From an uncultured bacterium (lineage in GTDB: Bacteria > Hydrothermota > UBA3073 > NMUJ01 > CBEVQO01): a DNA stretch of 64,000 bases. This document shows, piece after piece, positions 2,365 through 56,889 of the stretch; the stretch's first letter is position 1; the number at the start of each line of letters is the position of its first letter. The stretch covers positions 13,373 to 77,372 of the forward strand of contig CBEVQO010000005.1 of NCBI GenBank assembly GCA_965552055.1, read 5' to 3'. Below the pieces are notes generated by a model that was not told where the DNA came from, did not search any database, and saw only the letters and a program-made list of their open reading frames with translations. The position numbers were made by a program, and so were the translations under genes.

Positions 2365-2384
2365 CATCACCTCACATTTCTATA

Positions 2385-2411
2385 AACTTAATCAATATAC
2401 AGGTATGTCAA
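2385..2411 (-). promoter_or_regulatory. sigma70-like promoter (TTGACA-N15-TAAGTT) for the RnfC/GIY-YIG/ATPase genes
   Basis: Minus-strand TTGACA at 2411-2406 and TAAGTT at 2390-2385. Same ~45-nt block as the promoter upstream of the response-regulator gene at 11189-11215. Confidence 0.45.
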
Positions 2412-2413
2412 CA

Positions 2414-2521
2414 ATTTTTAGCCCCGCCTCCCTATCCCCACCGCCCTCGTGCACACCCCTCCTTTCAGTCGGGGTGTTGACTCACAACCCGTATGTAATA
2501 AGCTCGGCTACGCCTCGCATT
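2414..2521 (-). repeat. Intergenic GC/G-tract-rich repeat, copy 1
   Basis: Plus-strand text atttttagccccgcctccctatccccaccgccctcgtgcacacccctcctttcagtcggggtgttgactcacaacccgtatgtaataagctcggctacgcctcgca. Shares blocks with copies at ~11218-11296, ~15680-15846 and (reverse complement) ~24161-24266. Contains inverted repeat ACACCCC/GGGGTGT (2453-2459 / 2471-2477). Confidence 0.5.
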
Positions 2522-2539
2522 AAAAATTTTAAAGCCGCT

Positions 2540-8026: not shown

Positions 8027-8741
8027 TTGTTTTCCTCATTAAGTAAATTGCAACATTTTCATTTTTTCTTATAGCATCTTTTATTGCTTCGATATTCTTT
8101 TCTGCTTTTATTAATGTCTTCCACGAATAAAGGTGCCAAGGTTCATGGAAATCAGAATTTGCAATATAATTGTATTTCTTTACTCCAATTGAATTAAACA
8201 AATCATCGCGATTGGCAACTTCCCAGGCATCAAACATTTCTTTGAATTTTTCCTGATTCTCCCATAAATACCATGATAGATGTTCTTTATCTTCTTTTTT
8301 CCTGTCCGGATGAGCAGCAATAACAATGGCATTTTGCTCTTTTACTTCTTTAATAATCTCTTCCACAGGTAAAGATGGTTCAACATATTCTTTTATATCT
8401 ATGGCAAGAATGTGATATAAATCACGATTATTGGTGATTTCTACTCCCGGAATTAACAGCATGTTGTATTCTTTCCATGCTCTTTTTGCTTCTTTCCATA
8501 ATGTTTTTAAATAATCCTTAAAATTTTCTTTTGTTATCGCATTTATTTGTTCTCCTTTCCTTATACGCTCTTCAAGGGTATACTTATCTAAAATATGGTC
8601 AGTTATTGAAATAACATCAAAACCATGTTTCCCGAATAGATCAACAACTTCTCTAAGTGGTAGTTTGCCGTCGCTAAATTTTGTGTGAATATGGAAATCG
8701 CAAAGCAACCAGTTCATCTCACTCACATAATTTATACACAA
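8013..8741 (-). CDS. PHP-domain metal-dependent phosphoesterase
   Basis: N-terminal CDFHIHTKFSDG (HxH metal motif), further His/Asp positions (ITDH, AAHPD, SDFHEP). Probable start at the internal Met MNWLLCDF. Confidence 0.6.
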   Translation of the reverse strand: MCINYVSEMNWLLCDFHIHTKFSDGKLPLREVVDLFGKHGFDVISITDHILDKYTLEERIRKGEQINAITKENFKDYLKTLWKEAKRAWKEYNMLLIPGVEITNNRDLYHILAIDIKEYVEPSLPVEEIIKEVKEQNAIVIAAHPDRKKEDKEHLSWYLWENQEKFKEMFDAWEVANRDDLFNSIGVKKYNYIANSDFHEPWHLYSWKTLIKAEKNIEAIKDAIRKNENVAIYLMRKTNEKR

Positions 8742-10499: not shown

Positions 10500-11176
10500 T
10501 CTTCTATTTTGTAGCCTATTCCTCTTACGCTTTTTATAAATTTCTTGGCTTTGCCTAATTTTTCTCTTAAATTCTTAATATGGACATCTACTGTCCTATC
10601 CAGAACAACTTTATCAATTCCCCATAATTTATCCAGAATCTGGTCCCTTGTAAATACCCAGCCTTTTCTTTCTGCCAGTATTTTTAGAATCCTGAATTCC
10701 GTTGGAGTTAAGTCCACTTTTTTATTTTCAACAAAGACTTCATATTTATTGAGGTCTATTACGAGGATATCACCTATTTTAATCTTTTTGCAGGTATCAT
10801 GCGGTGCTTTCCTTCTTAAGACTGCTTTTACTCTGGCAACTAACTCCCTTGGTGAGAAGGGCTTTGTCACATAATCATCTGCTCCCAGTTCCAGACCCAA
10901 AACTTTATCTGCTTCGGTAGTGCGTGCGGTAAGCATAATGATAGGAATAGATTTAAATTCATCTTTTGATTTTAGATACTTACAAACCTCAAAGCCATCC
11001 ATATCAGGAAGCATGAGATCCAAAATTATAAGGTCAGGTATCTGTGAGGATAAAAATTCGAAGAAATCTTCAGCATTCTGAAAGCATTTAACTTTAAAAC
11101 CATGCTTAGTGAGATGTAAAGATACAAGCTCTAAAATATCAGGCTCATCATCTATCACAGCTATTAATTCATTCAT
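10496..11176 (-). CDS. OmpR/PhoB-family response regulator (PhoB-like)
   Basis: Receiver domain (DDEPDIL, LDLMLPDMDGFEV, conserved Lys in YVTKPF) plus winged-helix output (LTPTEFRILKILAERKGWVFTRDQI). First gene of the phosphate cluster. Confidence 0.85.
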   Translation of the reverse strand: MNELIAVIDDEPDILELVSLHLTKHGFKVKCFQNAEDFFEFLSSQIPDLIILDLMLPDMDGFEVCKYLKSKDEFKSIPIIMLTARTTEADKVLGLELGADDYVTKPFSPRELVARVKAVLRRKAPHDTCKKIKIGDILVIDLNKYEVFVENKKVDLTPTEFRILKILAERKGWVFTRDQILDKLWGIDKVVLDRTVDVHIKNLREKLGKAKKFIKSVRGIGYKIEE

Positions 11177-11188
11177 CGCATTTCTCTA

Positions 11189-11215
11189 AACTTATTCAAT
11201 ATACAGGTATGTCAA
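11189..11215 (-). promoter_or_regulatory. sigma70-like promoter (TTGACA-N15-TAAGTT) for the Pho cluster; near-leaderless
   Basis: Minus-strand TTGACA 11215-11210 and TAAGTT 11194-11189. The ATG at 11176 lies about 12 nt after the -10 with no SD. Block is near-identical to 2372-2416. Confidence 0.45.
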
Positions 11216-11217
11216 CA

Positions 11218-11296
11218 ATTTTTAGCCCACCTCCCTATCCCCACCTCCCTATCCCCACCCCACAACCCATTGGTAATTAGCTCGCTTACGCTCGCA
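11218..11296 (-). repeat. Intergenic GC/G-tract-rich repeat, copy 2 (internal 14-bp tandem duplication)
   Basis: atttttagcccacctccctatccccacctccctatccccaccccacaacccattggtaattagctcgcttacgctcgca. Tandem 14-mer acctccctatcccc at 11229-11242 and 11243-11256. Lacks the hairpin block seen in copies 1 and 4. Confidence 0.5.
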
Positions 11297-11303
11297 TTTT
11301 TAC

Positions 11304-11339: not shown

Positions 11340-12041
11340 ATGAATCTAAAGGAAGTTCAAAATAGACTTCAAGAAATTAAAAATAAAGGATTTGTGCCAT
11401 CTTTAAGAAGAGGAACAACAGGAATTGGATACACCTTTGAGATACTTTTTGGAATAAAGGAAAACAATATCCCAATCCCAGACATCGGCGGAAGAGTTGA
11501 AATTAAAACAATAAGAAGAGATTCGCAATCTTTAATAACATTATTTACTTTTAATAGAGGCGTCTGGCATATAAAGCAAAAAGAACTAATCAAAAAATAT
11601 GGATATGTTGATAAAAAGGGTAGATATGCATTAAAAAATACGGTTTTTTATGGCAAATCCATTCCACAAGGAATATCATTAGAAGTAGATGAAGATAAAA
11701 ACACTATTCATTTAGTTGATACGAATACAAAGAAAGTCCTTGCAACATGGGATGTTTATGTCATTGTCGGTATATTTATGACAAAATTGAGCAAATTATT
11801 ACTCGTAATAGCTGATAGAAAGAAAGAGAAAGGTAAAGAATATTTTCACTACAATGAAGCTTACCTTTTGACAGATCCCAGTGCTCGAAATTTTATAAAA
11901 GCATTTAAAAATTCCCTAATAGGCATTGATATTAGAATGCATCTAAAAGAAAGCGGAGAAGTTAGAAATAGAGGAACTGCATTCCGTATAAAAGAAAAGG
12001 ATTTATTAGAACTTTATGAAAATCGCAAGAAACTTATTTAA
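11340..12041 (+). CDS. Putative type II restriction endonuclease, MutH/MvaI/BcnI-like PD-ExK fold
   Basis: 233 aa with a candidate PD...ExK active site (IPIPDIGGRVEIKT) in a MutH-like arrangement. Stop is 2 nt before the SPPY methyltransferase gene. Confidence 0.5.
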   Translation: MNLKEVQNRLQEIKNKGFVPSLRRGTTGIGYTFEILFGIKENNIPIPDIGGRVEIKTIRRDSQSLITLFTFNRGVWHIKQKELIKKYGYVDKKGRYALKNTVFYGKSIPQGISLEVDEDKNTIHLVDTNTKKVLATWDVYVIVGIFMTKLSKLLLVIADRKKEKGKEYFHYNEAYLLTDPSARNFIKAFKNSLIGIDIRMHLKESGEVRNRGTAFRIKEKDLLELYENRKKLI

Positions 12042-12043
12042 AA

Positions 12044-13312
12044 ATGCCTGCAATTATGCATAGATTTAAAAAATATAGAGACAAAACATGGGATTTTCGT
12101 ATGGCGAATACAAAGCAATATACTCATTGTTTTCATTCTTATCCTGCAATGATGATACCGCAAGTCGCAGGACGCATTTTGGATGAATTTGGAAAAAATT
12201 CTAAACTTTTATTCGATCCATATTGCGGTACAGGAACTTCTTTAGTAGAAGCAAATTTAAGAGGCATAAATGCTATCGGCACAGACATTAACCCATTGGC
12301 TAGATTAATAGCTAAAGTTAAAACAACCATTATTCCTTTAAAATCTTTGGATTTATATATAAAAGATTTCAACGATTTTGTTCTTTCAATACGATTAGGA
12401 GGGAGAAAAGTTTCTCCTAAAATTCCTAATTTTAAAAATATCGATTATTGGTTCAAAAAAGAAACACAATATTGGCTCGCTGTCATTAAAGAATATATTG
12501 AAAAAATTGATAACGAAGATATTAGGGACTTCTTTAAAGTAGCATTTAGTGAAACAGTAAGAGAAGTATCGTTGACCCGAAATAGTGAATTTAAACTATA
12601 TAGAATGAGTGAAAAGCAAATAGAGAAATTTAATCCCGATGTTTTCTTTATAATGATGGAGAAATTAATAAGAAATAGAAATGGAATGGCAGAATATATC
12701 AAAATAAAAAAGAACAAAGCATCTTCTAAAATCTACGATTTTAACACAGTCTATGAGATTCCATTCGATATAATTCCACCAGAAAGTATAGATATCGTGG
12801 TAACTTCTCCACCATATGGTGATTCTAGAACCACAGTAGCATATGGACAATTTTCTCGACTCGCTAACCAATGGTTGGAATTTGAAGAAACTAACGAAGT
12901 AGATAAAAAGTCAATAGGTGGAGTAAGAAAGAAAGAATATAGAAATTTTAATGTTGAAGTGTTAGACAAAGTGCTATTTAAAATTGCACGAATAGATGAA
13001 AAAAGATTATATGATGTGATTTCATTTTACATAGACTATGAAAAATCCATAAATAATGTTGCTAAAGTTGTTAAAAAGGGCGGTATTGTAGCGTATGTAG
13101 TGGGTAATCGCAAGGTAAAGGGCATAGAAATTCCAAATGATGAAATAACCAAAGAATTTTTTGAAAGAAATGGCTTTAAGCATATTAAAACCATAATAAG
13201 AGAAATTCCAAATAAAAGGATGCCTAAAAGAAATAGTCCGAGCAATATAGCAGGAATAACGGATACAACTATGAATTACGAATACATTGTTATCTTGAGA
13301 AAAGAAAAATAA
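12044..13312 (+). CDS. DNA methyltransferase with SPPY motif IV (N4-cytosine/N6-adenine class, alpha-like order)
   Basis: AdoMet motif I FDPYCGTGTSLVEA near the N-terminus and motif IV VVTSPPYGD near residue 255, with the intervening region as presumptive target-recognition domain. Confidence 0.75.
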   Translation: MPAIMHRFKKYRDKTWDFRMANTKQYTHCFHSYPAMMIPQVAGRILDEFGKNSKLLFDPYCGTGTSLVEANLRGINAIGTDINPLARLIAKVKTTIIPLKSLDLYIKDFNDFVLSIRLGGRKVSPKIPNFKNIDYWFKKETQYWLAVIKEYIEKIDNEDIRDFFKVAFSETVREVSLTRNSEFKLYRMSEKQIEKFNPDVFFIMMEKLIRNRNGMAEYIKIKKNKASSKIYDFNTVYEIPFDIIPPESIDIVVTSPPYGDSRTTVAYGQFSRLANQWLEFEETNEVDKKSIGGVRKKEYRNFNVEVLDKVLFKIARIDEKRLYDVISFYIDYEKSINNVAKVVKKGGIVAYVVGNRKVKGIEIPNDEITKEFFERNGFKHIKTIIREIPNKRMPKRNSPSNIAGITDTTMNYEYIVILRKEK

Positions 13313-13318
13313 TTCTTT

Positions 13319-15679
13319 TCACTCATGCTCCTCAAAGCCTTTGAGTAATTCTGCCATTTCTCTCAGTTTCTGGTCAACGAGGTAATTTACGGTATCAGGT
13401 TCATAAGTGCCATCGGGCAAAAGTTTTCCCGCTTTTACACCCGTTAGCAATTCAATGCCTTCATCAATGGTTTTTATCGCATAAATATGAAATTTGCCAT
13501 CTTCAACTGCTTTAACAACTTCTTTATTCAACATTAGATTTTTGATATTCTGATAGGGTATAATCACTCCCTGTGTGCCAGTAAGCCCTTTTGCCTTGCA
13601 TACTCTGAAAAAGCCCTCGATTTTTTCGTTAACACCTCCTATTGGCTGTATCTCACCCCATTGATTCACAGAACCTGTAACAGCGAGGTCCTGACGGATA
13701 GGCAGTCCAGATAGGCACGATAAAAGTGCGTAAAGCTCCGTGCTCGAAGCACTATCACCTTCTATTTCTTCATACATCTGCTCAAAGCATATACTCGCAG
13801 AAAGAGAAAGCGGTTTATTATGTGCATATTTGCCAGCAAGATAAGCACTCAAAATCAAAACTCCTTTGCTGTGAATAGGACCACTCATTTCAATTTCACG
13901 CTCAATGTTTAAAATGCCCTTCTTACCCATATAAACCCTGGCAGTAACACGAACAGGATAGCCAAAAGAATAATCACCGAGCTCAACAACAGTCAAACCA
14001 TTCACCTGACCTACTTTTTTGCCTTCAACATCTATAAGTAATCTGCCTCTTTTTATTTCTTCGTGTATTTTTTCTTCTATCAAATTTACCCTGTAGCGCT
14101 TTTTCTCAAGTGCCTTTTCAACATGCTCTGCCGTCACATATTTACTGCCATCCTGTTCTGCCCAGAAACTCGCTTCAGTTATCACATCAACAACTTCTAT
14201 AAATTTTGTGGATAATTTATCCTGGTCTCCCGTTAACTCCGAGCCATATTCAAGTATGCGTGCTACACCAGATGGGTCAAAATGCTTCAAATTTTTATCC
14301 CTGCATTGTTTCGCAATAAACGAAATATAAGCATCAATATGCTCCTTTGTTCTCGGCATCTCTGTATCAAAATCCGCTTTCACTTTAAACAATTTTCTGA
14401 AATCTTCATCAAATTCATGTAAAAGATGATAAAGCAAAGGTGTACCAATCAAAATAACTTTAACATTATGAGGGATGGGTTCTGGACGCAATGTAACAAC
14501 AGGTGTCTGACGCAATTCCTCACCTATATTCTCAATCCTCAACTCCTTTGTCCTTATCGCACGCTTTAAGGCATCCCATACAAATGGATTTAAAAGGGCT
14601 TCTTTCGCCGGTATTATCAAAAAGCCACCATTAGCCCTGTGAAAAGCTCCGGGTTTTATCAAAGTAAAATGAGTTACGAGATTGCCATCAACACTTTTAT
14701 ACTCAATTCTCCCAAAAAGATTATAATATGTCGGATTTGGTTCAAAAACAAGGGGTGCATGAGATAAATGTGAATTATCAACAAAAACATTAACTTTTAA
14801 GTTAAAAAGAAAATCAGGCTCCTCTTCTCCTGAAAGTGATTTTATCTTTTCAGTAAATTGTGCAAGGTATTCTTTGACACCATCAAAATATTCTTTCAAT
14901 TTCTTATATTTCTGATATTTCGCTTTAAGTTGTTTCACATATCTTCCGACCACATTTTTTACAATCCATTCATCGAGCTGTTTTATTTCTTCTCTCATTA
15001 CATCGTCAATTTCATGTAGCTTATGGAAGGTTTCGTCGAGTTTTTCCTTTATATATGCTCCTGCTTTTTCAATTTTTTCTTTTTCCTTTTTCGGAAGGGC
15101 TTCGAGTTCTTCAAGTGTATATTGTGTGCCATCTTCTTTCAGTGGCACTGCAAAAAGACCTGCAGGACGCCTTAAAACTTCAAAATTATATTTGCGGGCT
15201 TCTTTTTGTAATGATTCTAAAATTTCGGATTTCTTAGCTTCATATTTCTCTTTTATCGTATTGACTTCACGAAAATACTCATCGGATTTGAAAAAATGAG
15301 GCAATTTCTTTTTGCATGCGATTATTAATTTCTCCATATCTTCTGCAAGTTCTTTCCCTTTGCCTTTATCAAGTTCAACAAAAATAGGTTCTTCTGGCTT
15401 TTTAAAATTAAAAAGATAACAATAATCCTTTGGCGGTGGTAATTTTTTTGCGTATTCTTCTACAAATGCACGAACAGTGGAAGTCCTGCCGGTGCCAGGC
15501 AATCCCGATACAAATATGTTAAAGCCATCGGCTTTGGTCTGCAGACCAAATTTTATAGCTTCTACTGCACGCTCCTGACCAATGGTGCCGGTAAGTGGTT
15601 TGACTTCTTCAGTACTCTTAAATTTAAATTGCGAAATATCATATTTTAATCTAAGTTTATCAGCACTTAATTTTTCCAT
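13319..15679 (-). CDS. Lon-like protease (LonB/LonC-type) with degenerate P-loop
   Basis: P-loop-like GLPGTGRTS (Arg in place of the Walker A Lys) and no clear hhhhDE Walker B. C-terminal Lon protease domain with EGDSASST (Ser) and FFRVCKAKG (Lys). ORF track starts at TTG 15751, but the first 24 codons are the intergenic repeat; the likely start is ATG 15677-15679 (MEKLSADK...). Confidence 0.7.
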   Translation of the reverse strand: MEKLSADKLRLKYDISQFKFKSTEEVKPLTGTIGQERAVEAIKFGLQTKADGFNIFVSGLPGTGRTSTVRAFVEEYAKKLPPPKDYCYLFNFKKPEEPIFVELDKGKGKELAEDMEKLIIACKKKLPHFFKSDEYFREVNTIKEKYEAKKSEILESLQKEARKYNFEVLRRPAGLFAVPLKEDGTQYTLEELEALPKKEKEKIEKAGAYIKEKLDETFHKLHEIDDVMREEIKQLDEWIVKNVVGRYVKQLKAKYQKYKKLKEYFDGVKEYLAQFTEKIKSLSGEEEPDFLFNLKVNVFVDNSHLSHAPLVFEPNPTYYNLFGRIEYKSVDGNLVTHFTLIKPGAFHRANGGFLIIPAKEALLNPFVWDALKRAIRTKELRIENIGEELRQTPVVTLRPEPIPHNVKVILIGTPLLYHLLHEFDEDFRKLFKVKADFDTEMPRTKEHIDAYISFIAKQCRDKNLKHFDPSGVARILEYGSELTGDQDKLSTKFIEVVDVITEASFWAEQDGSKYVTAEHVEKALEKKRYRVNLIEEKIHEEIKRGRLLIDVEGKKVGQVNGLTVVELGDYSFGYPVRVTARVYMGKKGILNIEREIEMSGPIHSKGVLILSAYLAGKYAHNKPLSLSASICFEQMYEEIEGDSASSTELYALLSCLSGLPIRQDLAVTGSVNQWGEIQPIGGVNEKIEGFFRVCKAKGLTGTQGVIIPYQNIKNLMLNKEVVKAVEDGKFHIYAIKTIDEGIELLTGVKAGKLLPDGTYEPDTVNYLVDQKLREMAELLKGFEEHE

Positions 15680-15846
15680 TTTTAGCCCCGCCTCCGCTGT
15701 CCCCACCTTCCCGATTAAGTCAGCCCACTCCTTACCCTTCTTTAAACGCAATCAGAAGATAAAGCGTAAACAACCCGAATAACCCACATCCCCGTAATGG
15801 GCTGACATATCAACCCTTATGTAATGTGCTCGGCTGCGCCGAGCAA
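15680..15846 (-). repeat. Intergenic GC/G-tract-rich repeat, copy 3 (divergent middle, perfect 7-bp palindrome)
   Basis: tttttagccccgcctccgctgtccccacc ... caacccttatgtaatgtgctcggctgcgccgagca. Shares 5' and 3' blocks with copies 1, 2 and 4; the middle carries inverted repeat GTCAGCCCA/TGGGCTGAC. Abuts the Lon-like start codon directly (GGGGCTAAAAATG). Confidence 0.45.
15828..15844 (-). terminator. Hairpin GCTCGGC-tgc-GCCGAGC just downstream of the membrane-protein gene stop
   Basis: Perfect 7-bp stem, 3-nt loop, 4 nt after the stop at 15849. Only a weak U-rich tail follows, so terminator function is uncertain; it is also the conserved 3' block of the repeat. Confidence 0.3.
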
Positions 15847-15848
15847 TA

Positions 15849-17042
15849 TTACTCTTTCTTCTCTTCCTCTTTCTTCTCCTCTTTCTTTTCTTCTTCCTTC
15901 TTTTCCTCTTCCTCTATCGGCAATTCTTCTTCGGGCTTCTCTTCAAGCAGGTCTTTTTCATCTTTAATCTTAACAAGGACAACATAAAAGAGAGTTTGAC
16001 CGGCACTCCATGTTGCTAAACCATATCCCGCTACAAACATGCCAATGAAGTGGAAGGATAAACCAGCGAGAAAGCCACCAATCCAGTCAGCCCAGGTAAG
16101 AGGCTTCATCCACTCAACGCCCCACAGCAATACAGGAAGATGGAACACTTTTGCACAAAGTATCTCAGCCCATGGTACTCTCGGACAGCGCGGCAGATAC
16201 CACAAACCATTATTCCACATCACTTCCCACCATCTATAAGCACCGAGCTCCGTATATCTCGTGCCAGACCATAAGTTGAGTGCCCAGTGCATCAAAATGA
16301 GTGCCTTCTTAACCAGCCAGCCAAGAATATACACACCTGCAAACGCTGCAAATGCTATGAAAATCTGCCACAGAACTGTACGCCATGTCTGGTCATTCAA
16401 CACACTGAATACCTCAAAAAGAGTATCAAATGCATCGCTCTCCGTAGTAGCAGTAACAGCAGGAGATACTATAAGCGATAAAAACCATACTATCGCAAGG
16501 TAAACAACAAATAGCGCTCCAAATGCTATCGGGATAAAGAGCAAACCCGTTATTATCTGTCCAGCATAGGGAATCCTTCCAACGAGTCCACAGAGAAAAC
16601 CAACAAGAATCAGGAAGCCAATGAGAAATGTAAGCACAAGAGGAGCACCTATCGTGCCTTTCCACTGCTTCATCGCAAATCTTATAGCCTCTGTTACTTC
16701 GTAAAATTCATTGCCCTTTAACTGCTCAAAGGTCATCTTGCTGATAGCACAAACCGTAGTAAGCAGTATGAATACTCCAGCCGATACCCCTATAACCCAT
16801 ATCACCCAGCTCCATGGTCGAAGATGAGTGCCAACTCCCTTTACAGGTATTATCACCCACGGAATATACCTGAACTCACGCCAGACCTCTTTCCATGTCC
16901 AGCCCGAGGTAACATACGCTACATAGGCCAGTATAGAGTACACAACCGTCGCACTCAGTATCCCCAGGAACGCGATCCAGATTTTTTTAGCAGAGAACCC
17001 AAGACGAGGCGCCCTGACTACATCTGCAAAACCCCACTTCAT
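15849..17042 (-). CDS. Trp-rich polytopic membrane protein with acidic/basic (EEKK)n C-terminal tail
   Basis: Multiple hydrophobic helices; 26 Trp in 397 aa; tail ...EEKKEEEKKEEKKEEEKKE. Begins 12 nt after the trpS stop, so probably co-transcribed. Confidence 0.5.
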   Translation of the reverse strand: MKWGFADVVRAPRLGFSAKKIWIAFLGILSATVVYSILAYVAYVTSGWTWKEVWREFRYIPWVIIPVKGVGTHLRPWSWVIWVIGVSAGVFILLTTVCAISKMTFEQLKGNEFYEVTEAIRFAMKQWKGTIGAPLVLTFLIGFLILVGFLCGLVGRIPYAGQIITGLLFIPIAFGALFVVYLAIVWFLSLIVSPAVTATTESDAFDTLFEVFSVLNDQTWRTVLWQIFIAFAAFAGVYILGWLVKKALILMHWALNLWSGTRYTELGAYRWWEVMWNNGLWYLPRCPRVPWAEILCAKVFHLPVLLWGVEWMKPLTWADWIGGFLAGLSFHFIGMFVAGYGLATWSAGQTLFYVVLVKIKDEKDLLEEKPEEELPIEEEEKKEEEKKEEKKEEEKKE

Positions 17043-17054
17043 AATACCTCCTTT

Positions 17055-18029
17055 TTACCACATTCCTATTGCTTCCTTAACTTCCTTTAAAACCTCAGAT
17101 GCAACACTCCTTGCACGCTTCGAACCTTCAAAAATTATATCCTTAACATCTTCATCTTTTAAACTTTTAGCCCTCTCTCTAATCTCTCTGAAAAACTCCG
17201 ATAACTTTTGGGATGCCTCTTCCTTACACGCTACACAACCTCTTTTACCCTCCCTGCATTCCTTCTCAATGATACTTAAATTCTCTGCATTAACAAGGTT
17301 GTGATAGGCGAAAACAACACAACCTTCGGGATGACCAGGGTCATTTTTTCTTATCTTCTGAGGGTCTGTAAAAGCCTGCATAACTTTTTCTTTTATAACT
17401 TCAGGCTCATCTCTCACCAGTATATAATTTTTCAGCGATTTTGACATCTTTTTACCGTCAATCCCCGGTACTTTCGGTGACCTCGATAGAAGTGGCTGTG
17501 GCTCAGGGAATATCTTTTTATAAAGCGAGTTAAACCAGCGAGCAATTTGACGGGTTAATTCAAGATGAGCAAGCTGGTCTTCACCCACAGGTACTTTATT
17601 CGGCTTATACATCAAAATATCAACCGCCTGTAAAACAGGATACCCCAGTAACCCATAATTAACTTTTTCCCTCAAACCATAATCCCTTATCATCTCTTTG
17701 AGTGTTGGATTTCTTTCGAGCCAAGGCACAGGTACAAACATCGAAAAAATTAAATGCAATTCACAATGCTCGGGAACAAGCGATTGCAAAAAAATTACAG
17801 ATTTTTCAGGAGATATACCGGCAGAAAGCCAGTCCTTAGTCATTTCAATTATATTTTCCTTCAATTTAGATGTATCTTTATAATCTGTTGTCAATGCATG
17901 ATAATCTGCCAGCAAAAAATAACATTTATATTCATCCTGAAGTTTCAGCCAGTTACTTAAAGCACCAAAATAATTACCAATGTGAAGCTTGCCTGTTGTA
18001 CGCATACCAGATAAAATATTCTCTTTCAT
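17055..18029 (-). CDS. trpS: Tryptophan--tRNA ligase
   Basis: Class I signature HIGN (GKLHIGNYFG) and KMSKS (KKMSKSLKN); length 324 aa. Confidence 0.9.
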   Translation of the reverse strand: MKENILSGMRTTGKLHIGNYFGALSNWLKLQDEYKCYFLLADYHALTTDYKDTSKLKENIIEMTKDWLSAGISPEKSVIFLQSLVPEHCELHLIFSMFVPVPWLERNPTLKEMIRDYGLREKVNYGLLGYPVLQAVDILMYKPNKVPVGEDQLAHLELTRQIARWFNSLYKKIFPEPQPLLSRSPKVPGIDGKKMSKSLKNYILVRDEPEVIKEKVMQAFTDPQKIRKNDPGHPEGCVVFAYHNLVNAENLSIIEKECREGKRGCVACKEEASQKLSEFFREIRERAKSLKDEDVKDIIFEGSKRARSVASEVLKEVKEAIGMW

Positions 18030-18264
18030 TTCAATAAGATTTCGAGTTTTTTAGCAAGATATAAGAGCATTAAAAACAAAGCAAGCAGAATTATCAATAA
18101 TTTGTAGTTGGGCGAAGGACTTTTTCTTTCTGAAAATAATCTTCTCATTATCATACTATAAATTATCGTCAAATTACAAGGATGTCAAGAATAAAATGAA
18201 AAATTTGAATTGACATTTTTGTGAAATAAACATAATGGTTAGTGCGTTATATTAAAAAGGGGGT

Positions 18265-19107
18265 GTGATGAGGTATGTATTGTTAGGAGTGATATGTTTG
18301 GGACTGGTGGTAGGATGTGCTCGTAAGTGGATTTCGGATGAAGAAGCGATAAGGGAACTCATAGATGAGCTCGGCTATCTGCTGGGTGCGGGCGAATATT
18401 ACGGTAAGGAAACAGGGGATACCACTGTTACTCAAGGTAAGGGATATGCCGGGGTGTTCTGGTACAGAAGTGTCGATAGTGTGAGCGTAGATCTTAAAGT
18501 GAATATAAATGGCGATTCCGCATGGGTTGAAATAGAAAGAATGATTTACGGAGTATTCCACAGGTTTCCTTTCGATACGATGCCAGCAGGTACTCTGGTT
18601 GATAAGCCAAAAGACCTAAAAGATAAAATCACAAGATATGCTATTTTCAGGAAGACAGGTAAGCCGAGGCGTCATCGTGGATGGTGTTTGCATAAATTGT
18701 CGGGAGCTATGGCAAAATCACAACTTGGAGGTCCCGATATAAAGATTGATAGTGTGAAGTTGATATTGAAAGGCGATACGATAACGATAAGAGAGCCCTT
18801 TGAGTTTACAGATACTGTGAATATTATTGAATGCCAGCAAAATGAAGAAATTGAAGTTTATGCCTATGTATCTCCCGATACTGTTCCTGTTCTTGTATTT
18901 TTACATTTTCCAGGTAATCAGCGCCACATAAGGAGGAGATGCATGATAATAAGTGATGGGGTATTTTATGGTGAGTGCAAGGTAGGCAGGAAGGGTTATG
19001 GAAGATTGGGAGTAGATGTGATATGGAGTCCAACATTGTTTGAAGATGATGAGAGTACTTATCCTTACTGTTCGAGGGCATGGATTATAAATATAAGGTG
19101 CAAGTGA
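18265..19107 (+). CDS. Hypothetical lipoprotein
   Basis: Signal peptide with lipobox LVVGC (MMRYVLLGVICLGLVVGCAR); no recognisable catalytic motif. Confidence 0.5.
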   Translation: MMRYVLLGVICLGLVVGCARKWISDEEAIRELIDELGYLLGAGEYYGKETGDTTVTQGKGYAGVFWYRSVDSVSVDLKVNINGDSAWVEIERMIYGVFHRFPFDTMPAGTLVDKPKDLKDKITRYAIFRKTGKPRRHRGWCLHKLSGAMAKSQLGGPDIKIDSVKLILKGDTITIREPFEFTDTVNIIECQQNEEIEVYAYVSPDTVPVLVFLHFPGNQRHIRRRCMIISDGVFYGECKVGRKGYGRLGVDVIWSPTLFEDDESTYPYCSRAWIINIRCK

Positions 19108-19140
19108 GGAATAAAATTTTGAGATTTTTAAAATTTTAGC

Positions 19141-19169
19141 TTGACAAATTGATATTTTGAATATTATAT
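19141..19169 (+). promoter_or_regulatory. rRNA operon promoter P1
   Basis: agcTTGACAaattgatattttgaatattatat: -35 TTGACA at 19141-19146 with a TAtnaT-like -10 15-17 nt downstream. Confidence 0.5.
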
Positions 19170-19207
19170 AAGTGGGTTCTTTGGATTGAAAAAGTGAAAA
19201 AAGAAGC

Positions 19208-19237
19208 TTGACAAATTGGGATTTTTGATAATATAAT
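19208..19237 (+). promoter_or_regulatory. rRNA operon promoter P2 (tandem duplicate of P1)
   Basis: agcTTGACAaattgggatttttgataatataat: TTGACA 19208-19213, TATAAT-like 19231-19237. The ~67-bp unit agcttgacaaattg...ttctttg is repeated from P1. Confidence 0.55.
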
Positions 19238-19261: not shown

Positions 19262-20818
<1,557 letters not shown>

Positions 20819-20851
20819 TTTCTCTCCGGGCAGCACACTTTATTTTTTTAT

Positions 20852-20923
<72 letters not shown>

Positions 20924-20924
20924 T

Positions 20925-20996
20925 GGGGATGTAGCTCAGTGGGAGAGCGCCTGCTTTGCAAGCAGGAGGTCAGGGGTTCGAATCCCCTCATCTCCA
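20925..20996 (+). tRNA. tRNA-Ala (anticodon TGC)
   Basis: Acceptor GGGGAUG/CAUCUCC with G3:U70, anticodon loop UUUGCAA, T-loop GGTTCGAAT. Separated from tRNA-Ile by 1 nt. CCA not encoded. Confidence 0.9.
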
Positions 20997-21040
20997 TGGG
21001 AAGCGATTTAGTTCTTTGACAATCAAGGCAGATGAGCATC

Positions 21041-24047
<3,007 letters not shown>

Positions 24048-24087
24048 GATGCTCATCTGCCTACTTTGTAATTAACCTGTTTTTAAC

Positions 24088-24157
24088 GCCCCGACCGCCT
24101 TCTTAATATTGTCCCTTAGAGGACCTGTGTAAGAATAAGGGGTCGGGGCTTTTTTTT
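24088..24157 (+). terminator. Rho-independent terminator of the rRNA operon (long nested hairpin plus T8)
   Basis: gccccgacc (24088-24096) pairs with ggtcggggc (24141-24149), with inner complementary segments ttctta/taagaa and gtcc/ggac, followed by 8 T at 24150-24157. Confidence 0.6.
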
Positions 24158-24160
24158 ATT

Positions 24161-24266
24161 ACGAGCGATAGCGAGTTTATTACATAAGGGTCTTTTGTCA
24201 CACCCCGACCGAAGGGAGGGGTGTGCACATGGGAAGGTGGGGACTGGGAGGAGGGGCTAAAAATAA
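24161..24266 (+). repeat. Intergenic GC/G-tract-rich repeat, copy 4 (opposite genomic orientation)
   Basis: Reverse complement reads tttttagcccctcctcccagtccccaccttcccatgtgcacacccctcccttcggtcggggtgtgacaaaagacccttatgtaataaactcgctatcgctcgt, colinear with copy 1. Oriented toward the downstream plus-strand promoter. Confidence 0.5.
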
Positions 24267-38086: not shown

Positions 38087-40768
38087 ATGATGGTGATTTT
38101 AATTTTCATACTGGGAACATTAATTGACTCTGCAGGTGGCAAATGTATAATTTCGCCGAAAGAGGATTTTGTAATTAAGGTGACACCCTTTTTATGGATA
38201 AAAATAGAAGATTTACCCGAAATTGTAAAGGAAGCCATAGATTCTGCTCCTTCCTGGCTTCGAGGTCGCTTAACTTTGAATTTTATGAAAATGTACGGTC
38301 AATGTCAAGAAGTTTATGCTGGACTTATTCTTTCTGTTGATAAAAGTTATCGTGATGAAATTGCTTTTCAGATAGCAACGCTTGACCCCCTTATCCTTTA
38401 TCATTATGTAGGTGACCCTTCGCTCTTTGTAGAAAATGTGAAGTTGATTTATAAAAGCGATAGTTTACTCGATTATGTTGAGCTTGTGGAGTATCCAGAA
38501 TATACAACCTGCAGATATAGAATATCTGACCATGGGAAAGATACTTTTGAGATTGAGATTCCGAAAGAGATTTATTACTGGGATATTGTTCATCCTGTAA
38601 TTGGCTGGGAGGCTCCTCTTTATATTGACCCGAAGGTACCTGACCCTTATCATACAGGTGCAGGGGAAGCGCCTCCGCCCCGTGGACATTTCTGGCGCGA
38701 ATATTATCTCTTTTATCCTGATACCGTTGAAAGTACAGTGATATCGGATAATGGTAAAGATACAGTTAAAGAAGGATATGTTTGCACTCCTTTAAAAGAC
38801 CTGTTAAAGGATGAAAAAATATTATGGGCGATGAAGAAAGATACAATAGAAGGTAACGGTGCAATAGGTAAACTTACTCAATGGGTTAAAGATGTTATGG
38901 TTTTTAACTCTGGTAGTGAGCGTCCCTGGCAGCCTGTTCGTGTTTATCACATGCATATGGGGAGGTGTGGTGAGCATGGGCATATTACTGGAGCAGCTGC
39001 AAGAGCAGCTCTTATACCTGCAACTTATATTTTGACACTTTGCAATGACCATGTATGGAATGAATTTTATGACGAAGAATGGCATACATGGGAGCCTGTA
39101 AACACTTATATAAATCATCCTGAAAGCTATGATAACTGGTGGAGCGGAAAGGCAGTGTTACCCTTTGCTTTCAGAGGCGACGGATGCATTATCGATGTTA
39201 CACAAAGATACACCCCGCATTGTACTCTTACCGTGTTTGTTGCAGATAGCGTGGGTAATCCGGTTGATGGTGCATGTGTAAAACTTTATGCAACACATAT
39301 TTATGGTGGGACTTATATATGCGGATGGCATTACACAAATACAGATGGATTGGCAAGATTTATAATCGGTGATAATGTAAGTTATTACATAAAAATAGAA
39401 TCAGACATTGGTAACTATCCTTCAAGTGGAAGTATGCAGATAATAACGATTTCGCAACCAGATACTCATTATTATTATGAGCATTATTTTGATGAATTTT
39501 TACCGCAATTAAATGCAGAAAGTACCCAAATAACAGAACCTGTAGAATATCGAGTTGAGATAACATTTAAACTTGAGGATGAATATACAGAAGCACAAAC
39601 TTTGTTTTCGAATGAACTGGGAGTTGCGCAAAAGTGGTTTAAAAAAGGGTTGCCAAAAATAAACTTTTTCATTTGTGATGAGGAGAATTATAAAAAATAT
39701 CTTGAAGGTGAAAATTTTGATGCTGTTTACATTGCAAAAAATGTAGATTCGGGATATGTGTCTTTTCAATTTCCAGTGCCTCATCTTACAAATTGGTACA
39801 TTGTTTTTATGAATAAAAATAAATGCAAGACTTATGAACTTCTTGAATTTGAAGTGAAGAGCTATCAATTAACTTCAGTAGCACATATTAAAGTTGAGAA
39901 AGCAGTTTATGATTTTGGGACAGTTATAGCAGGTAAATTTTCACAGGATACAATGTGGATTTATAACATTGGACTTGGTGACTTAAAAGTTGATAGTATA
40001 AAATTAATTTCAAATGTTTTTGATTTTGATGATAATTTGCCTTATATGCTTTCCTCGCATGATAGTGTGGGTGTTTTATTATATTTTGCTCCAGAAGATA
40101 CAGGTATTTTTTGTGATACTTTGTTTATTTATTCAGATGACATTGATGCCCAAGAGTTACCGGTAGTTTTGGTTGGTGAGAGTAGAGTGCCCGATATTGA
40201 GTTTGCAGATAGTGTGTGTGATTTTGGTACGGTATCCATAGGCCAAACTGTTTATAAAAGAGAAAAAGTGTGGAATTGCGGGAGTTATCCTTTAAAAATT
40301 GACAGTGTTATCTCGACGAGCAATTCATTTGGTGTTTACTCTCCTTCTTTTCCACAACAGTTAGAAGAGGGTGATACTCTCGAGATGATAATTTATTGTT
40401 CGCCACGGGATACGGGAATTCTTGAAGGCGAGTTTTTGTTCTATTCAAATGATCCCGATGAAAATCCAGCTGTGTTAAAATTAACGGCAAGGGGATATGG
40501 TCTTCAGGAAAAGTTAGGCAGTTTTTATGTGAAATACAATCCAAATCCCTGTAAGGATTTCTGTGTTATTACTTATTATTTGCCAAGAGAAGAAAAAGTT
40601 AGTTTAAAGATATATGATGTATGTGGCAGATGTGTTGAAAAAATTAATTCTTTTGAGAAAACAGGCATTCACAAAATTTTTATTAAAGATTTGCCATCGG
40701 GAGTGTATTTCTGCGAGTTTAAAGCAATGAAAAAATTGCATAGATTTAAGATAATCTTTATAAGATGA
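38087..40768 (+). CDS. Secreted transglutaminase-like domain protein with Ig-like domains and T9SS C-terminal sorting domain
   Basis: Transglutaminase-like core GRCGEHGHITGAAARAALIPATYILTLCNDHVWNEFYDEEWHTWEP (Cys/His). DUF1573-like Ig modules (YDFGTV...NIGLGDLKVDSI). C-terminal tail KIYDVCGRCV...GVYFCEF...FKIIFIR typical of T9SS sorting domains. Confidence 0.6.
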   Translation: MMVILIFILGTLIDSAGGKCIISPKEDFVIKVTPFLWIKIEDLPEIVKEAIDSAPSWLRGRLTLNFMKMYGQCQEVYAGLILSVDKSYRDEIAFQIATLDPLILYHYVGDPSLFVENVKLIYKSDSLLDYVELVEYPEYTTCRYRISDHGKDTFEIEIPKEIYYWDIVHPVIGWEAPLYIDPKVPDPYHTGAGEAPPPRGHFWREYYLFYPDTVESTVISDNGKDTVKEGYVCTPLKDLLKDEKILWAMKKDTIEGNGAIGKLTQWVKDVMVFNSGSERPWQPVRVYHMHMGRCGEHGHITGAAARAALIPATYILTLCNDHVWNEFYDEEWHTWEPVNTYINHPESYDNWWSGKAVLPFAFRGDGCIIDVTQRYTPHCTLTVFVADSVGNPVDGACVKLYATHIYGGTYICGWHYTNTDGLARFIIGDNVSYYIKIESDIGNYPSSGSMQIITISQPDTHYYYEHYFDEFLPQLNAESTQITEPVEYRVEITFKLEDEYTEAQTLFSNELGVAQKWFKKGLPKINFFICDEENYKKYLEGENFDAVYIAKNVDSGYVSFQFPVPHLTNWYIVFMNKNKCKTYELLEFEVKSYQLTSVAHIKVEKAVYDFGTVIAGKFSQDTMWIYNIGLGDLKVDSIKLISNVFDFDDNLPYMLSSHDSVGVLLYFAPEDTGIFCDTLFIYSDDIDAQELPVVLVGESRVPDIEFADSVCDFGTVSIGQTVYKREKVWNCGSYPLKIDSVISTSNSFGVYSPSFPQQLEEGDTLEMIIYCSPRDTGILEGEFLFYSNDPDENPAVLKLTARGYGLQEKLGSFYVKYNPNPCKDFCVITYYLPREEKVSLKIYDVCGRCVEKINSFEKTGIHKIFIKDLPSGVYFCEFKAMKKLHRFKIIFIR

Positions 40769-40798
40769 GATTTAATTCAGAAAGAGAAAGGGAGTGTT

Positions 40799-43141
40799 AT
40801 GAAGAAGTGTGTTTTAATACTATGTGTATTTTGGGGTCTATTAATGGCTAATGCCGATGCTGAGAAATGGGTTGTGGATACTTCTGGTGTAGAGGGCGAA
40901 TCTTTACAGGTGGCGATAGATAAAGCATGGAATGACCCTGGAATTGATACTGTAGTGGTTAAAAACGGGAAATATCATCTTGCTATAAATGGCGATACGG
41001 GTTTAATAATGCGAGATTCTGTTGTATTGATAAGCGAAGGTGGTGCGTACAAATGCACACTTACAGCAATAAAAGAAGATTTCAGTGACACTGCATGGCA
41101 TGTGATTTTTTGTGATACAAGTGGCTTCAAAGATACTGCATCTCATGCAGCACTGATAAAAGGTTTTACAATAAAAGATGGCAAGACAGAGTTCGGTTCT
41201 CCACCGCACAACCAAGGTGGAGGCATTTTCTTATACAGGGCTTCTCCTGTTATTGAATCATGCAATATTGTTTACAATACCGCCTACAATGGAGCAGGCA
41301 TTTACATTGAATATGCTTCACCTATATTGAGGGATAACATAATAGCGCATAATTATGCTTACTATTTTTGCGGAGGCGTTCATATTGCTGACCATTCCTC
41401 ACCTTATTTAAGCGGTAACATTATAAAAGATAACTCGGGATATTATGCAGGTGGTATTTGCATTATAGGTTATTCAAGACCTGAATTGTGCAATAATATT
41501 ATAGAAAAGAATTGGGCGGGTGCTCTTGGTGCGGGCATTTATATCCTTGCTTCTTCTTCAGCAACTCTAAATAATAACATTATTAAAAACAATCATGCCG
41601 ATTATAAAGGAGGCGGTATTTGCATTTTGCAAAATTCTTCCGCGATATTAAGGGCTAGCATTATAAAGGGCAATAGTGTTTATCACCATGGTGGTGCTTT
41701 ATGCATAGGTAAAAATTCTTGGTGTGTGCTTTCGAATAATGTTATTATCGATAATAAAGCTCGTGATTATGGTGGATGTGTTTTTATTTGTGATAATGCT
41801 TCTCTTTTGATGAAAAATTGTGTTATTGCGATGAACAAAGCACTGGAAGGCGGGGTAATATTTGAAAGTTGTTCAAGCAAAACTGTAATTGATTCGTGTT
41901 TTATAATTGATAATGGCAGTCATTCTTCGCGCACGGGTCTTGCATTCATTGATAGCACTGCGGATTCAGGTGTGACATTTAAAATTTCAAATTCAAATGT
42001 TTATTATAATACCTATCAGCCCGATACCGAGATTTATAACTTATCGAGTGTTATGATAGATTTAAAGAACAATTTCTGGTGGGATACAACCGATAGTGAA
42101 ATATCATCATTGATTTACGGCTTAAATGACCATTCTAACTGGCGAAAAGATTTTGTGTCTGGTGTGCCAGGTGAGCCTCTTCAAGTTGATTCTGTAAAAG
42201 TGTATATTGATTCGATGTATTCTGAATTAGCCGATAACATATGGGAACCATGCACCCTTTATTTGAGATTATTCGGCAGAGATAGATTAAGGAATGTGAA
42301 AGAAATAGCCATTGCCATCGTTAAGACATCCATTTACCAGGTAGGGATTGCTGTTAGTTTGTTAGAAACGGATACTTCATCTGGAATATACGAGGGTGAA
42401 ATTTATGTGAAGGAAGTTACAGGAAAGGATACCATTCAAACTGATGATATTTATCAAAGAATAAAGGTTGATTCAATATGGGATACGATAATTGTTTTTC
42501 CTAACATTGATGTTACAAAGAGATACCGTGTAATTTACAAAGGTCCTGATATTGATGTATCTTATAAGAATTATGATTTTGGAAGTATAAATGTTGGAGA
42601 TAGTGCTGATTTTGAATTTTACTGCATGAATAAAGGTATTGCGAATCTTATAATTGATAGTGCAAAAGTAGATTCACCTTTCTTTGTAGTTTCTCCTGTA
42701 TTACCTTGCAGTATCGGGAGTGGTGATAGTGTAAAAATGGTTGTAAGATTTATCCCGCGTGATACGGGCAACTATACGGATACACTTAAAATTTATTCCA
42801 ATGACCCGAATGAACAGGTGATTTATATTTTGCTATCAGGTAGCGCTGTTTCGCCTTTTGTAAAAGAAATAAAACCTGTTAGATTCGAATTTAAAGGCGT
42901 GACCCCCAATCCTTTATGCAATCACGGTAAAATTCATTATGCTGTTCCTGAGAAATCGCACATTAATATAAGAATATATGATGTCACCGGTAGATTCATC
43001 AAAGAAATTATCAATGAAGAAAGTTCACCTGGCTTTTATGATGTTGAATTCAAAATTAATTTACCGGAAGGCGTTTACTTCATCGTAATGGAAGCTGACA
43101 AATTCAAATCGATTCGCAAATTTCTGGTAATAAAATGGTGA
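40799..43141 (+). CDS. Secreted right-handed parallel beta-helix repeat protein with T9SS C-terminal sorting domain
   Basis: Signal peptide; more than 8 repeats of ~23 aa of the form NNII.(D/N)N...GGGI.I.; Ig-like module (YDFGSINVGDSADFEF); tail RIYDVTGRFIKEI...GVYFIVMEADKFKSIRKFLVIKW. Confidence 0.6.
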   Translation: MKKCVLILCVFWGLLMANADAEKWVVDTSGVEGESLQVAIDKAWNDPGIDTVVVKNGKYHLAINGDTGLIMRDSVVLISEGGAYKCTLTAIKEDFSDTAWHVIFCDTSGFKDTASHAALIKGFTIKDGKTEFGSPPHNQGGGIFLYRASPVIESCNIVYNTAYNGAGIYIEYASPILRDNIIAHNYAYYFCGGVHIADHSSPYLSGNIIKDNSGYYAGGICIIGYSRPELCNNIIEKNWAGALGAGIYILASSSATLNNNIIKNNHADYKGGGICILQNSSAILRASIIKGNSVYHHGGALCIGKNSWCVLSNNVIIDNKARDYGGCVFICDNASLLMKNCVIAMNKALEGGVIFESCSSKTVIDSCFIIDNGSHSSRTGLAFIDSTADSGVTFKISNSNVYYNTYQPDTEIYNLSSVMIDLKNNFWWDTTDSEISSLIYGLNDHSNWRKDFVSGVPGEPLQVDSVKVYIDSMYSELADNIWEPCTLYLRLFGRDRLRNVKEIAIAIVKTSIYQVGIAVSLLETDTSSGIYEGEIYVKEVTGKDTIQTDDIYQRIKVDSIWDTIIVFPNIDVTKRYRVIYKGPDIDVSYKNYDFGSINVGDSADFEFYCMNKGIANLIIDSAKVDSPFFVVSPVLPCSIGSGDSVKMVVRFIPRDTGNYTDTLKIYSNDPNEQVIYILLSGSAVSPFVKEIKPVRFEFKGVTPNPLCNHGKIHYAVPEKSHINIRIYDVTGRFIKEIINEESSPGFYDVEFKINLPEGVYFIVMEADKFKSIRKFLVIKW

Positions 43142-43172
43142 TAAAAATTGATAAAAATTTTTAATTTTTAGC

Positions 43173-43199
43173 TTGACAAAGTCAAAATTTGATTAAAAT
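43173..43199 (+). promoter_or_regulatory. sigma70-like promoter (TTGACA-N15-TAAAAT) for the giant surface-protein gene
   Basis: agcTTGACAaagtcaaaatttgatTAAAAT, then SD AGGAGG at 43206-43211 and ATG at 43217. Confidence 0.5.
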
Positions 43200-43216
43200 A
43201 GATAAAGGAGGTTGTT

Positions 43217-55888: not shown

Positions 55889-55914
55889 AAATTTATTATA
55901 TTCATATTTTCAAT

Positions 55915-56889
55915 TTGTCAAGTAGAAATTTCTTTATTGCCATTTTAATATTCCGAATAAATTTAATGGTGAAAAGATTTTTATTCATGATAATTATTTT
56001 GCTAACCTGTTCGCCACCCAGGGACAACCCCTTTGACCCCAATTCTCCCATTTTTAAATTTGGTTTCTTAAAGGGAAGTGTTAAAAATCATTATCATATT
56101 CCTGTTCCTTATCCCGAAATCTATATTTTAGGTTCACAGAAAGGTTGTGGAGATTCTACGGGTAACTTCTTTTTTAAACTCGAAGAGGATTCCTATAAAG
56201 TCATTTTTTCAAAAAGCGGATATACATCGTCAACTTTATCTGTATGGATTGCATCTAAAGATACTCTTGAGGTCTTTCCCGTTATTGCAGGGATACCTTA
56301 TTTTGAAGAAGTCGGTGTTGCTTCTGAATTTTACAAAGGTACAGCGATTCAACCTGATAGATGTTATCTCACTATAAGAGCGGAAGTCAAAGACCCCGAT
56401 GGATTACAGGATATAGATAGTGTGAAGTGCCTTATACCTGCTGATAATCCATATTATGTAACTCTTTTTCCTTCTGCAGGATACTATGAGGCTACAATAA
56501 AGGGCACGAGTATTGTGACGATAGAAAACTGGGTTGGCAGGACTTTTCGCGCTTATGCAGTAGATAAATGGGGGATTAGGGGTTTTTCTCGTGATTTTAC
56601 ACTTGTAAGAGTTATAAAGGAGACAGCGAATCCTTTATATCCCCAAAATGGTGATTCGGTGGAATCTCCCGTGACCTTTGTGTGGAGAAAGCCGGATGTG
56701 AATTTTAGCATTCATTATCAGCTGATATTATACGAAGAAAACGGTGCAGAGAGAATTTTCGATACAGAAGATACCACAATTACGCTTTCACTTAATCCTT
56801 CACGCTATAGCTATTACATAAGAGCAATAGACGAATTCGGTAATTTCTCACAATCCACTTACACTGTCTTTTATGTTATCTCAAAATGA
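55915..56889 (+). CDS. Hypothetical lipoprotein with Ig-like beta-sandwich regions
   Basis: Probable start at internal Met MVKRFLFMIIILLTCSPP (lipobox LLTC); beta-rich sequence. Confidence 0.45.
   Translation: MSSRNFFIAILIFRINLMVKRFLFMIIILLTCSPPRDNPFDPNSPIFKFGFLKGSVKNHYHIPVPYPEIYILGSQKGCGDSTGNFFFKLEEDSYKVIFSKSGYTSSTLSVWIASKDTLEVFPVIAGIPYFEEVGVASEFYKGTAIQPDRCYLTIRAEVKDPDGLQDIDSVKCLIPADNPYYVTLFPSAGYYEATIKGTSIVTIENWVGRTFRAYAVDKWGIRGFSRDFTLVRVIKETANPLYPQNGDSVESPVTFVWRKPDVNFSIHYQLILYEENGAERIFDTEDTTITLSLNPSRYSYYIRAIDEFGNFSQSTYTVFYVISK

Follow-up and report, generated by a model that had tools for sequence, protein, structure and literature searches.

An optional, structurally maintained hairpin within a dispersed intergenic repeat family of an uncultured WOR-3-like lineage

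The ACACCCC/GGGGTGT hairpin near the start of the window, by which we mean the whole 64-kb stretch of DNA that was analysed, is real and structurally maintained, yet it is an optional module. It is probably an internal component of a lineage-specific, non-coding mosaic intergenic repeat, of the general kind represented by the BIME/REP, BOX, ERIC and Correia elements. The pattern ACACCCC-N(4-20)-GGGGTGT occurs exactly twice in the 64 kb (2453-2477 and 24200-24224) and in none of 100 dinucleotide-preserving shuffles, and both matches fall within copies of one four-copy repeat. Pattern searches together with nhmmer and arm profiles recover these four copies and no fifth one in the window, and all four are intergenic, as judged by Pfam annotation of the flanking genes. 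The sequences quoted in an earlier note on this DNA are present in copies 1 and 4: the copy 1 block reads gtgcacacccctcctttcagtcggggtgttgac at 2449-2481, one base beyond the end recorded there (2480), and the copy 4 block reads gtgcacacccctcccttcggtcggggtgtgac on the minus strand at ~24194-24226. The elements and their parts are distributed as follows.

2372-2414, plus strand: extra block found only in copies 1 and 2 (repeat family D13; alignments)
2415-2524, plus strand (C-rich strand): copy 1, hairpin form (nhmmer arm matches, layout)
2415-2446, plus strand: copy 1 left arm, TTTTTAGCCCCGCCTCCCTATCCCCACCGCCC (pattern, nhmmer)
2422-2446, minus strand: complement of the copy 1 left arm, a canonical G-quadruplex motif
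2447-2484, plus strand: copy 1 hairpin module, outer stem 2453-2459 with 2471-2477 (folding)
2485-2524, plus strand: copy 1 right arm, CAACCCGTATGTAATAAGCTCGGCTACGCCTCGCATTAAA (pattern, nhmmer, layout)
11219-11300, plus strand: copy 2, short form without a middle module
15679-15850, plus strand: copy 3, long form, middle closed by GTCAGCCCA (15719-15727) and TGGGCTGAC (15798-15806)
24154-24263, minus strand: copy 4, hairpin form, stem core 24200-24224
24231-24256, plus strand: copy 4 G-quadruplex motif

Each copy is built from a left arm and a right arm, both conserved and non-palindromic, which enclose one of several alternative middles. The left arm runs from TTTTTAGCCCCNCCTCC to TCCCCACC and the right arm from CAACCCNTATGTAAT to CTCGCTTACGCTCGCATTAAA. 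On the C-rich strand, the left arm follows the consensus TTTTTAGCCCC-N-CCTCC-N3-4-TCCCCACC-(G/T/A)(C/T)CC, and the right arm follows CAACCC-N-TATGTAAT-NN-(G/A)CTCG(G)CT-NN-CGC(C)TCG(C/T)A-(A/T)T(A/T)AAA. Between the arms lies either nothing, as in copy 2; a 38-nt hairpin, as in copies 1 and 4; a segment of ~100 nt with a closing stem of 9-12 bp, as in copy 3, whose inverted repeat is thus a different one; or, in one metagenome copy, the hairpin stem around 228 nt. The overall length ranges from 67 to 330 nt. Neither the hairpin nor the long insert was found independently of the arms in the DNA examined. Moreover, the two strands of the element are markedly asymmetric, one being strongly C-rich and nearly devoid of G and the other G-rich. 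The whole window contains just three canonical G-quadruplex motifs (four G3+ tracts with loops of 1-7 nt), namely the G-rich strands of the left arms of copies 1, 2 and 4; the same motif is present at loci L002, L004, L007, L009, L012, L017 and L018, and is missing from all long forms, which have no fourth G3 tract, and from the short form at L019, in which one loop is too long.

The hairpin itself occurs in three sequence variants that share one architecture, in which a 2x2 internal loop separates an outer stem of 7-8 bp from a 2-bp inner stem that carries a 3-nt loop. For the copy 1 module, RNA folding energies are -13.8 (C-rich strand) and -15.6 kcal/mol (G-rich strand), the variants span -13 to -21 kcal/mol with z scores of -2.4 to -4.4, and DNA parameters yield the same shape. 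Covariation was assessed in an alignment of five sequences, namely copy 1, L012, copy 4, L002 and an L018 sequence joined artificially after removal of its interior. Standard pairs make up 98% of the pair cells, and 3 of the 11 pairs are changed on both sides, compensatory changes that derive from very few independent events. The lack of compensatory changes that the earlier note named as one ground for refutation is thus not what the copies show. Specifically, an outer A-U pair becomes G-C in L002, an inner C-G pair becomes G-C in L002 and L018, and an inner U-A pair of the copy 1 type becomes C-G in the copy 4 type. The observed covariation score is reached by 1 of 500 shuffles, and all slid registers give 35-45% pairing. 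The third of these changes modifies the earlier description of a kept stem with a differing loop: the stem is indeed kept, but the T-to-C and A-to-G differences between copies 1 and 4 lie opposite each other in the 2-bp inner stem and are therefore a compensatory replacement of U-A by C-G. This symmetry fits RNA and single-stranded or cruciform DNA alike, as palindromes can stay symmetric through hairpin-templated repair. Additionally, the right arm begins with a sequence, CACAACCC, that is nearly the same as the 5' stem arm of the hairpin, CACACCCC, and slippage between the two would be a simple way of turning the hairpin form into the short form.

The four window copies occupy distinct genomic settings. 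Copy 1 falls within the gap separating the phoU stop (2540) from the rnfC start (~2364); both genes are on the minus strand (Pfam). The D13 repeat adjoining it (2372-2424) is 94% identical to 11176-11228 at copy 2 and reaches 10 nt into the left arm; this 53-nt block spans the TTGACA box and 5' leader of the downstream gene (minus strand at copy 1), and its presence at both copies indicates that the element was duplicated at least once together with the adjacent promoter region. Copy 2 separates divergent genes, a response regulator (minus strand; operon) and an MvaI/BcnI-like endonuclease (plus strand), and contains a 13-nt tandem duplication (11226-11238) that is missing in three other strains. 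The restriction endonuclease forms a gene pair with an N6/N4 methyltransferase (11340-13312) that directly adjoins this copy. Copy 3 is flanked directly by the lonC ATG (15679, minus strand) on one side and by the stop of the unknown upstream ORF (15849) on the other, and its left arm provides a GGAGG 11 nt upstream of the lonC ATG. ORF finders run lonC into this copy (15679-15751), giving 810 aa from a TTG here and 817 aa on the ENA contig (L001, 5944-8397); the ATG at 15679 is likely the true start and the longer calls an annotation artefact due to the repeat. Copy 4 sits between a terminator-like stem after the 23S rRNA and the TTGACT/TATAAT boxes of an SLBB/GNVR (polysaccharide-export) operon.

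Several features of the window bear on its host. The window has ~36% G+C and carries a bacterial 16S-tRNAIle-tRNAAla-23S operon of ~60% G+C, a combination that fits a thermophile. The nearest named RnfC homologues, at 58-61% identity, belong to candidate division WOR-3 and Stahlbacteria, and the metagenome-assembled genome GCA_964419125.1 represents the same species (98% RnfC identity). Relatives occur in records named GBSed, Ga0190286 and ERZ27248455, names which suggest hydrothermal sediment as the sample type. Several window proteins carry a T9SS C-terminal sorting domain. The rRNA operon (19266-24150) has no 5S gene after the 23S gene or elsewhere in the window at the Rfam gathering threshold, and the 23S gene is followed by a long-loop GC stem, GCCCCGACC…GGTCGGGGC, with T8 (~24088-24150). 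At ~17000-19200, the GC skew changes sign (cumulative minimum near 18 kb) together with a switch in gene orientation; this position may be the replication origin, and no dnaA was identified, the ORF at 18265-19107 having no Pfam match. Near-identical promoter-like blocks, AGCTTGACAAATTG…TATA, occur twice in tandem upstream of the 16S rRNA gene (19113-19168 and 19180-19235), once upstream of a giant ORF (43145-43200) and once inverted near 55.9 kb (55894-55931), and may represent a shared strong-promoter consensus. The giant ORF (43217-51430, 2737 aa) contains internal tandem repeats of ~890 nt (families D1, D5, D9, D10 and D12; 45.8-48.3 kb) and is preceded by two T9SS-sorted surface proteins (38087-43141). 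The ORF at 51400-52428 encodes Pus10 C-terminal and archaeal-type THUMP domains (E = 3.5e-70) in this bacterial genome; Pus10-type pseudouridine synthases are typical of archaea and eukaryotes. In addition, a 56-nt segment of a PHP-domain gene (8424-8479) is missing from the contigs of two other strains (L001 and L010), changing the predicted protein from 242 to 215 aa.

Beyond the window, the family appears confined to a single species. The left-arm pattern has no match in 185,579 representative species genomes and 20 matches in JGI metagenomes, of which 17 are true copies, all from sample Ga0190367, and the remaining three are chance matches in GC-rich DNA. Eight of these 17 copies lie <200 nt from a contig end, the position in which repeats present in many copies typically interrupt an assembly. 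Four of the 17 (L003, L010, L016 and L001, the last from ENA) are orthologues of window copies with 98.6-99.7% identity, and orthologous copies are found in four assemblies of the same species; the remaining loci are new. The arm profiles have no match in 80 LonC-homologue loci or in the RnfC loci of the nearest relatives (63-65% identity), both arm patterns have none in viral contigs, and blastn returns none in plasmid and phage collections. All copies thus come from one species, of which ~130 kb of DNA was examined, and they represent at least 17 independent loci with unrelated flanking genes. These include rnfC, phoU, a response regulator, lonC, nuo-type subunits, mnmG, mutS, a subtilase and an FBP aldolase/phosphatase, which share no common functional theme.

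The alternative forms recur across these loci. The short form is found at copy 2, L004, L007, L009 and L019; the hairpin form at copy 1, L012, copy 4 and L002; the long form at copy 3, L005, L006, L008, L014, L020 and L021; and the expanded form at L018. Both hairpin-containing and hairpin-lacking forms, as well as the long-insert form, therefore exist at independent loci, and the modular organisation proposed in the earlier note, with conserved arms around alternative middles, is borne out. Partial arrangements occur as well. L017 consists of a left arm alone, L019 carries a fragment resembling the 5' half of the hairpin placed after its right arm, and L006 has an extra solo right-arm end, GCTCGCTTACGCTCGTAATAAAAA (2622-2645; region 2569-2645), located 52 nt past a complete long-form element, with the TTGACA box of the FBP aldolase/phosphatase gene following 21 nt further downstream.

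The larger middles differ from the hairpin in how far structure is preserved. In L018, the ACACCCC…GGGGTGT arms, including the inner TCGC/GCTC pairs, close a unique, G-poor segment of 228 nt that has no similarity to other DNA examined and whose folding does not exceed that of shuffles; the G-rich strand of the element at this locus likewise folds no better than shuffles (z = +0.24). The 25-nt hairpin thus looks like the closing stem of a larger domain that either was deleted down to its loop or accepts insertions in the loop. For the long form, every stem that RNAalifold predicts from seven sequences is invariant, with 0 covarying pairs whichever strand is folded, and the interior has no conserved fold, its single-sequence predictions disagreeing from copy to copy. 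Identity across six paralogous long-form loci is 94-95% in the arms and outer stem, 65% in the 62-column interior and just 64% in the distal right arm. Between strains, the elements change at approximately the background rate; a 1-nt indel within copy 3 distinguishes strains and speaks against coding capacity, and the other differences are the copy 2 13-nt polymorphism and small changes in C-run length. Uniform arms with drifting middles fit either frequent gene conversion among arm-sharing copies or selection on the arms.

The mosaic-repeat reading accounts for a dispersed family whose copies are confined to intergenic DNA beside unrelated housekeeping genes. Copies would have been spread or homogenised through recombination or gene conversion, or by an arm-acting enzyme encoded elsewhere, a process that would keep the arms uniform while the middles drift, shrink by deletion or are swapped. 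They would persist only at harmless sites, just upstream of -35 boxes and just after stop codons. Where transcribed within neighbouring mRNAs, the stem-loops would probably act, by analogy with REP and BOX elements, as 3' exonuclease barriers or processing sites. REP and BIME sequences are often co-transcribed at gene 3' ends and affect mRNA stability.

Comparison with known systems places the family among such mosaics without equating it to any of them. Like the REP-built BIMEs of enterobacteria, the elements are short, non-coding, strictly intergenic, multi-copy mosaics of a few conserved motifs, with GC-rich palindromic stem-loops in which compensatory changes keep the pairing. The mosaic character is evident from at least four module combinations together with the solo right-arm end of L006, the isolated left arm of L017 and the displaced hairpin half of L019. 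Unlike in BIMEs, with which no sequence similarity is seen, the conserved parts here are non-palindromic, strand-asymmetric arms and the palindrome is optional; it is not the repeated unit, as it would be in REPs or REPINs, given that the short forms have no palindrome. Furthermore, there is no GTAG-type head, no RAYT gene seen and no paired-REP orientation pattern. The closest architecture is that of the Streptococcus pneumoniae BOX elements (boxA-boxB(n)-boxC), which likewise combine two conserved terminal modules with an optional, variable middle, lie between genes, are able to fold into stable stem-loops and are not known to have a transposase. The two differ in the middle, which in BOX elements consists of 0-n copies of one unit and here is drawn from several unrelated alternatives, in the host phylum, and in the G-rich/C-rich arms with a G-quadruplex motif of the present family. 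The elements have no match in phage and plasmid collections or in Rfam and are probably unrelated in sequence to boxA, boxB and boxC. With ERIC/IRU and the Neisseria Correia elements, the family shares size classes produced by internal indels at fixed positions, locations near promoters and gene ends, and transcribed stem-loops; in those elements, however, the whole repeat is a long imperfect palindrome or has 26-bp terminal inverted repeats and TA duplications, features for which the present family was tested with negative results. A looser parallel is offered by the G/C-rich intergenic repeats of the E. coli BoxC type, discussed as triplex or non-B DNA motifs and linked to local instability (PMC4666352). 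The present elements resemble these in their non-B potential, through the left-arm G-quadruplex motif, and in the 13-nt slippage polymorphism of copy 2, but have another motif and predicted structure, with no triplex-type arrangement of C-G-G blocks with short loops.

The main rival explanation, though unlikely, is that the element is a host cis-acting module positioned upstream of promoters, in which a G-rich arm (G-quadruplex motif and A-tract) and an optional stem-loop act at the DNA level. Sited immediately before -35 boxes, such a module would work as an insulator, as a UP-like element or as a platform for protein binding, and in a thermophile its structure could be heat-stable. The left end of the element points towards a gene 5' end in 11 of 14 independent loci, with a TTGACA-like hexamer 3-20 nt away, and beyond the right end there is often a divergent TTGACA box, at a distance of 7-21 nt. 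The solo right-arm end upstream of the FBPase promoter in L006, the arms conserved far above the interior and the coincidence of the window's only canonical G-quadruplex motifs with left arms point in the same direction. Against this, the distance to the -35 box is variable and unphased, L012, L014 and L019 have their left end beside a gene 3' end, copy 3 abuts a start codon with no intervening promoter, all long forms are without the fourth G3 tract, and the downstream genes show no functional theme. A compact genome, moreover, places any tolerated intergenic insertion beside a promoter, and the promoter proximity is probably due mainly to this compactness, which would leave little room for insertions other than the short gap from a stop codon to the next -35 box. 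A purely selfish model nevertheless explains only indirectly the TTGACA-like box 3-20 nt from the left end in most copies, and the uniformity of the arms could equally reflect host use. A related reading, which we regard as quite unlikely, holds that the host maintains the arms, either as a heat-stable G-quadruplex arm with an exchangeable stem-loop that would insulate promoters from upstream transcription or supercoiling, or as a scaffold RNA with an exchangeable central domain.

It is improbable that the family is a classical transposase-driven MITE or a currently mobile hairpin element of the IS200/IS605 or RAYT type (PATE/REPIN). The earlier comparison with MITEs holds insofar as the elements are short, multi-copy, non-coding and intergenic, and it fails for terminal inverted repeats and target-site duplications, both of which were tested. 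The size classes do resemble internal-deletion derivatives, and the asymmetric ends with internal palindromes recall IS200/IS605-derived elements and REPs. When the first 35 nt were compared with the reverse complement of the last 35 nt, however, only TTTTTA matched, and the terminal-inverted-repeat scores of 4-6 are no better than those of shuffles (mean 4.1-4.5), being equalled by 65-373 of 500. The flanks show no target-site duplication, with a mean longest common substring of 4.93 compared with 4.87 +/- 0.25 for flanks re-paired across loci. The window ORFs scanned contain no transposase domain, and no RAYT (Y1 transposase) gene was seen in ~130 kb of the species. Four strains display no insertion polymorphism and no empty site in any of them. 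In each of the four window copies, the G-rich strand is the one favoured by GC skew; across loci, 11 of 18 agree with the local skew, so that no orientation bias is apparent, and a replication-strand orientation of the IS200/IS605, KOPS or Chi kind is not supported. Finally, the hairpin, being optional, cannot be a transposition recognition element. The missing enzyme, terminal repeats, duplications and empty sites also weigh against the mosaic-repeat reading, in which mobility would follow from dispersal alone.

It is decidedly improbable that the element is a structured small RNA gene in multiple copies, or a cis-regulatory RNA, in which conserved 5' and 3' segments would enclose a variable central helix, and the hairpin is unlikely to represent a new RNA gene, contrary to the small-RNA resemblance suggested earlier. 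The compensatory pairs agree with an RNA, as does a single stem that closes inserts of 11 nt or 228 nt in the manner of the variable helices of some RNAs; on the G-rich strand, G-U pairs additionally lengthen the long-form outer helix and the hairpin internal loop becomes a tandem G-A. These points are outweighed by the behaviour of the element as a whole. Covariation is confined to the optional hairpin, the long form again showing none on either strand and interior folds that differ from copy to copy, while the short forms are unstructured (z = -0.2 and +1.1, no better than shuffles for both strands) and L018 likewise folds at shuffle level. Rfam gives no match on the elements, whether for the window at the gathering threshold, for copy 1 at E<=10 or for ten related loci at E<=1, and consensus scans find neither a promoter nor an intrinsic terminator framing any of the four window copies. 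Both orientations also occur in tandem gene contexts, with the G-rich strand as sense 5 times and the C-rich strand 3 times.

The least credible reading, that the long-form module encodes a small hydrophobic, type I toxin-like peptide from ATGTCAGCCCATTACGGG ('MSAHYG…', G-rich strand), draws on an ATG within the conserved GATATGTCAGCC and on ORFs of 18-44 codons, some of them hydrophobic-looking, but is effectively refuted by the conserved islands GGTTAT and CTTTATC, which are read in differing frames among copies owing to 1- and 2-nt indels, in addition to which ORF length and stop position vary in every copy, the hydrophobic look is due to G/T-rich composition, and the short and hairpin forms contain no ATG whatever.

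Collectively, these observations define a dispersed repeat family of an uncultured WOR-3-like lineage from hydrothermal-type samples that is previously undescribed, a literature word search having found no description of it. The repeat breaks metagenome assemblies of the organism, supplies the only G-quadruplex motifs of the region and misleads gene callers, one of which extended lonC by 31 codons into the element. As a mosaic repeat, it adds another case of modular intergenic repeats in which arms are kept uniform and middles are exchanged, and opens no new mechanism at present. The host-maintained or scaffold reading, if true, would explain the ~95% identity of the arms against ~65% for the interior. 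The family may also serve as a strain-typing marker and, given a complete genome, could be used to test gene conversion against selection on the arms.
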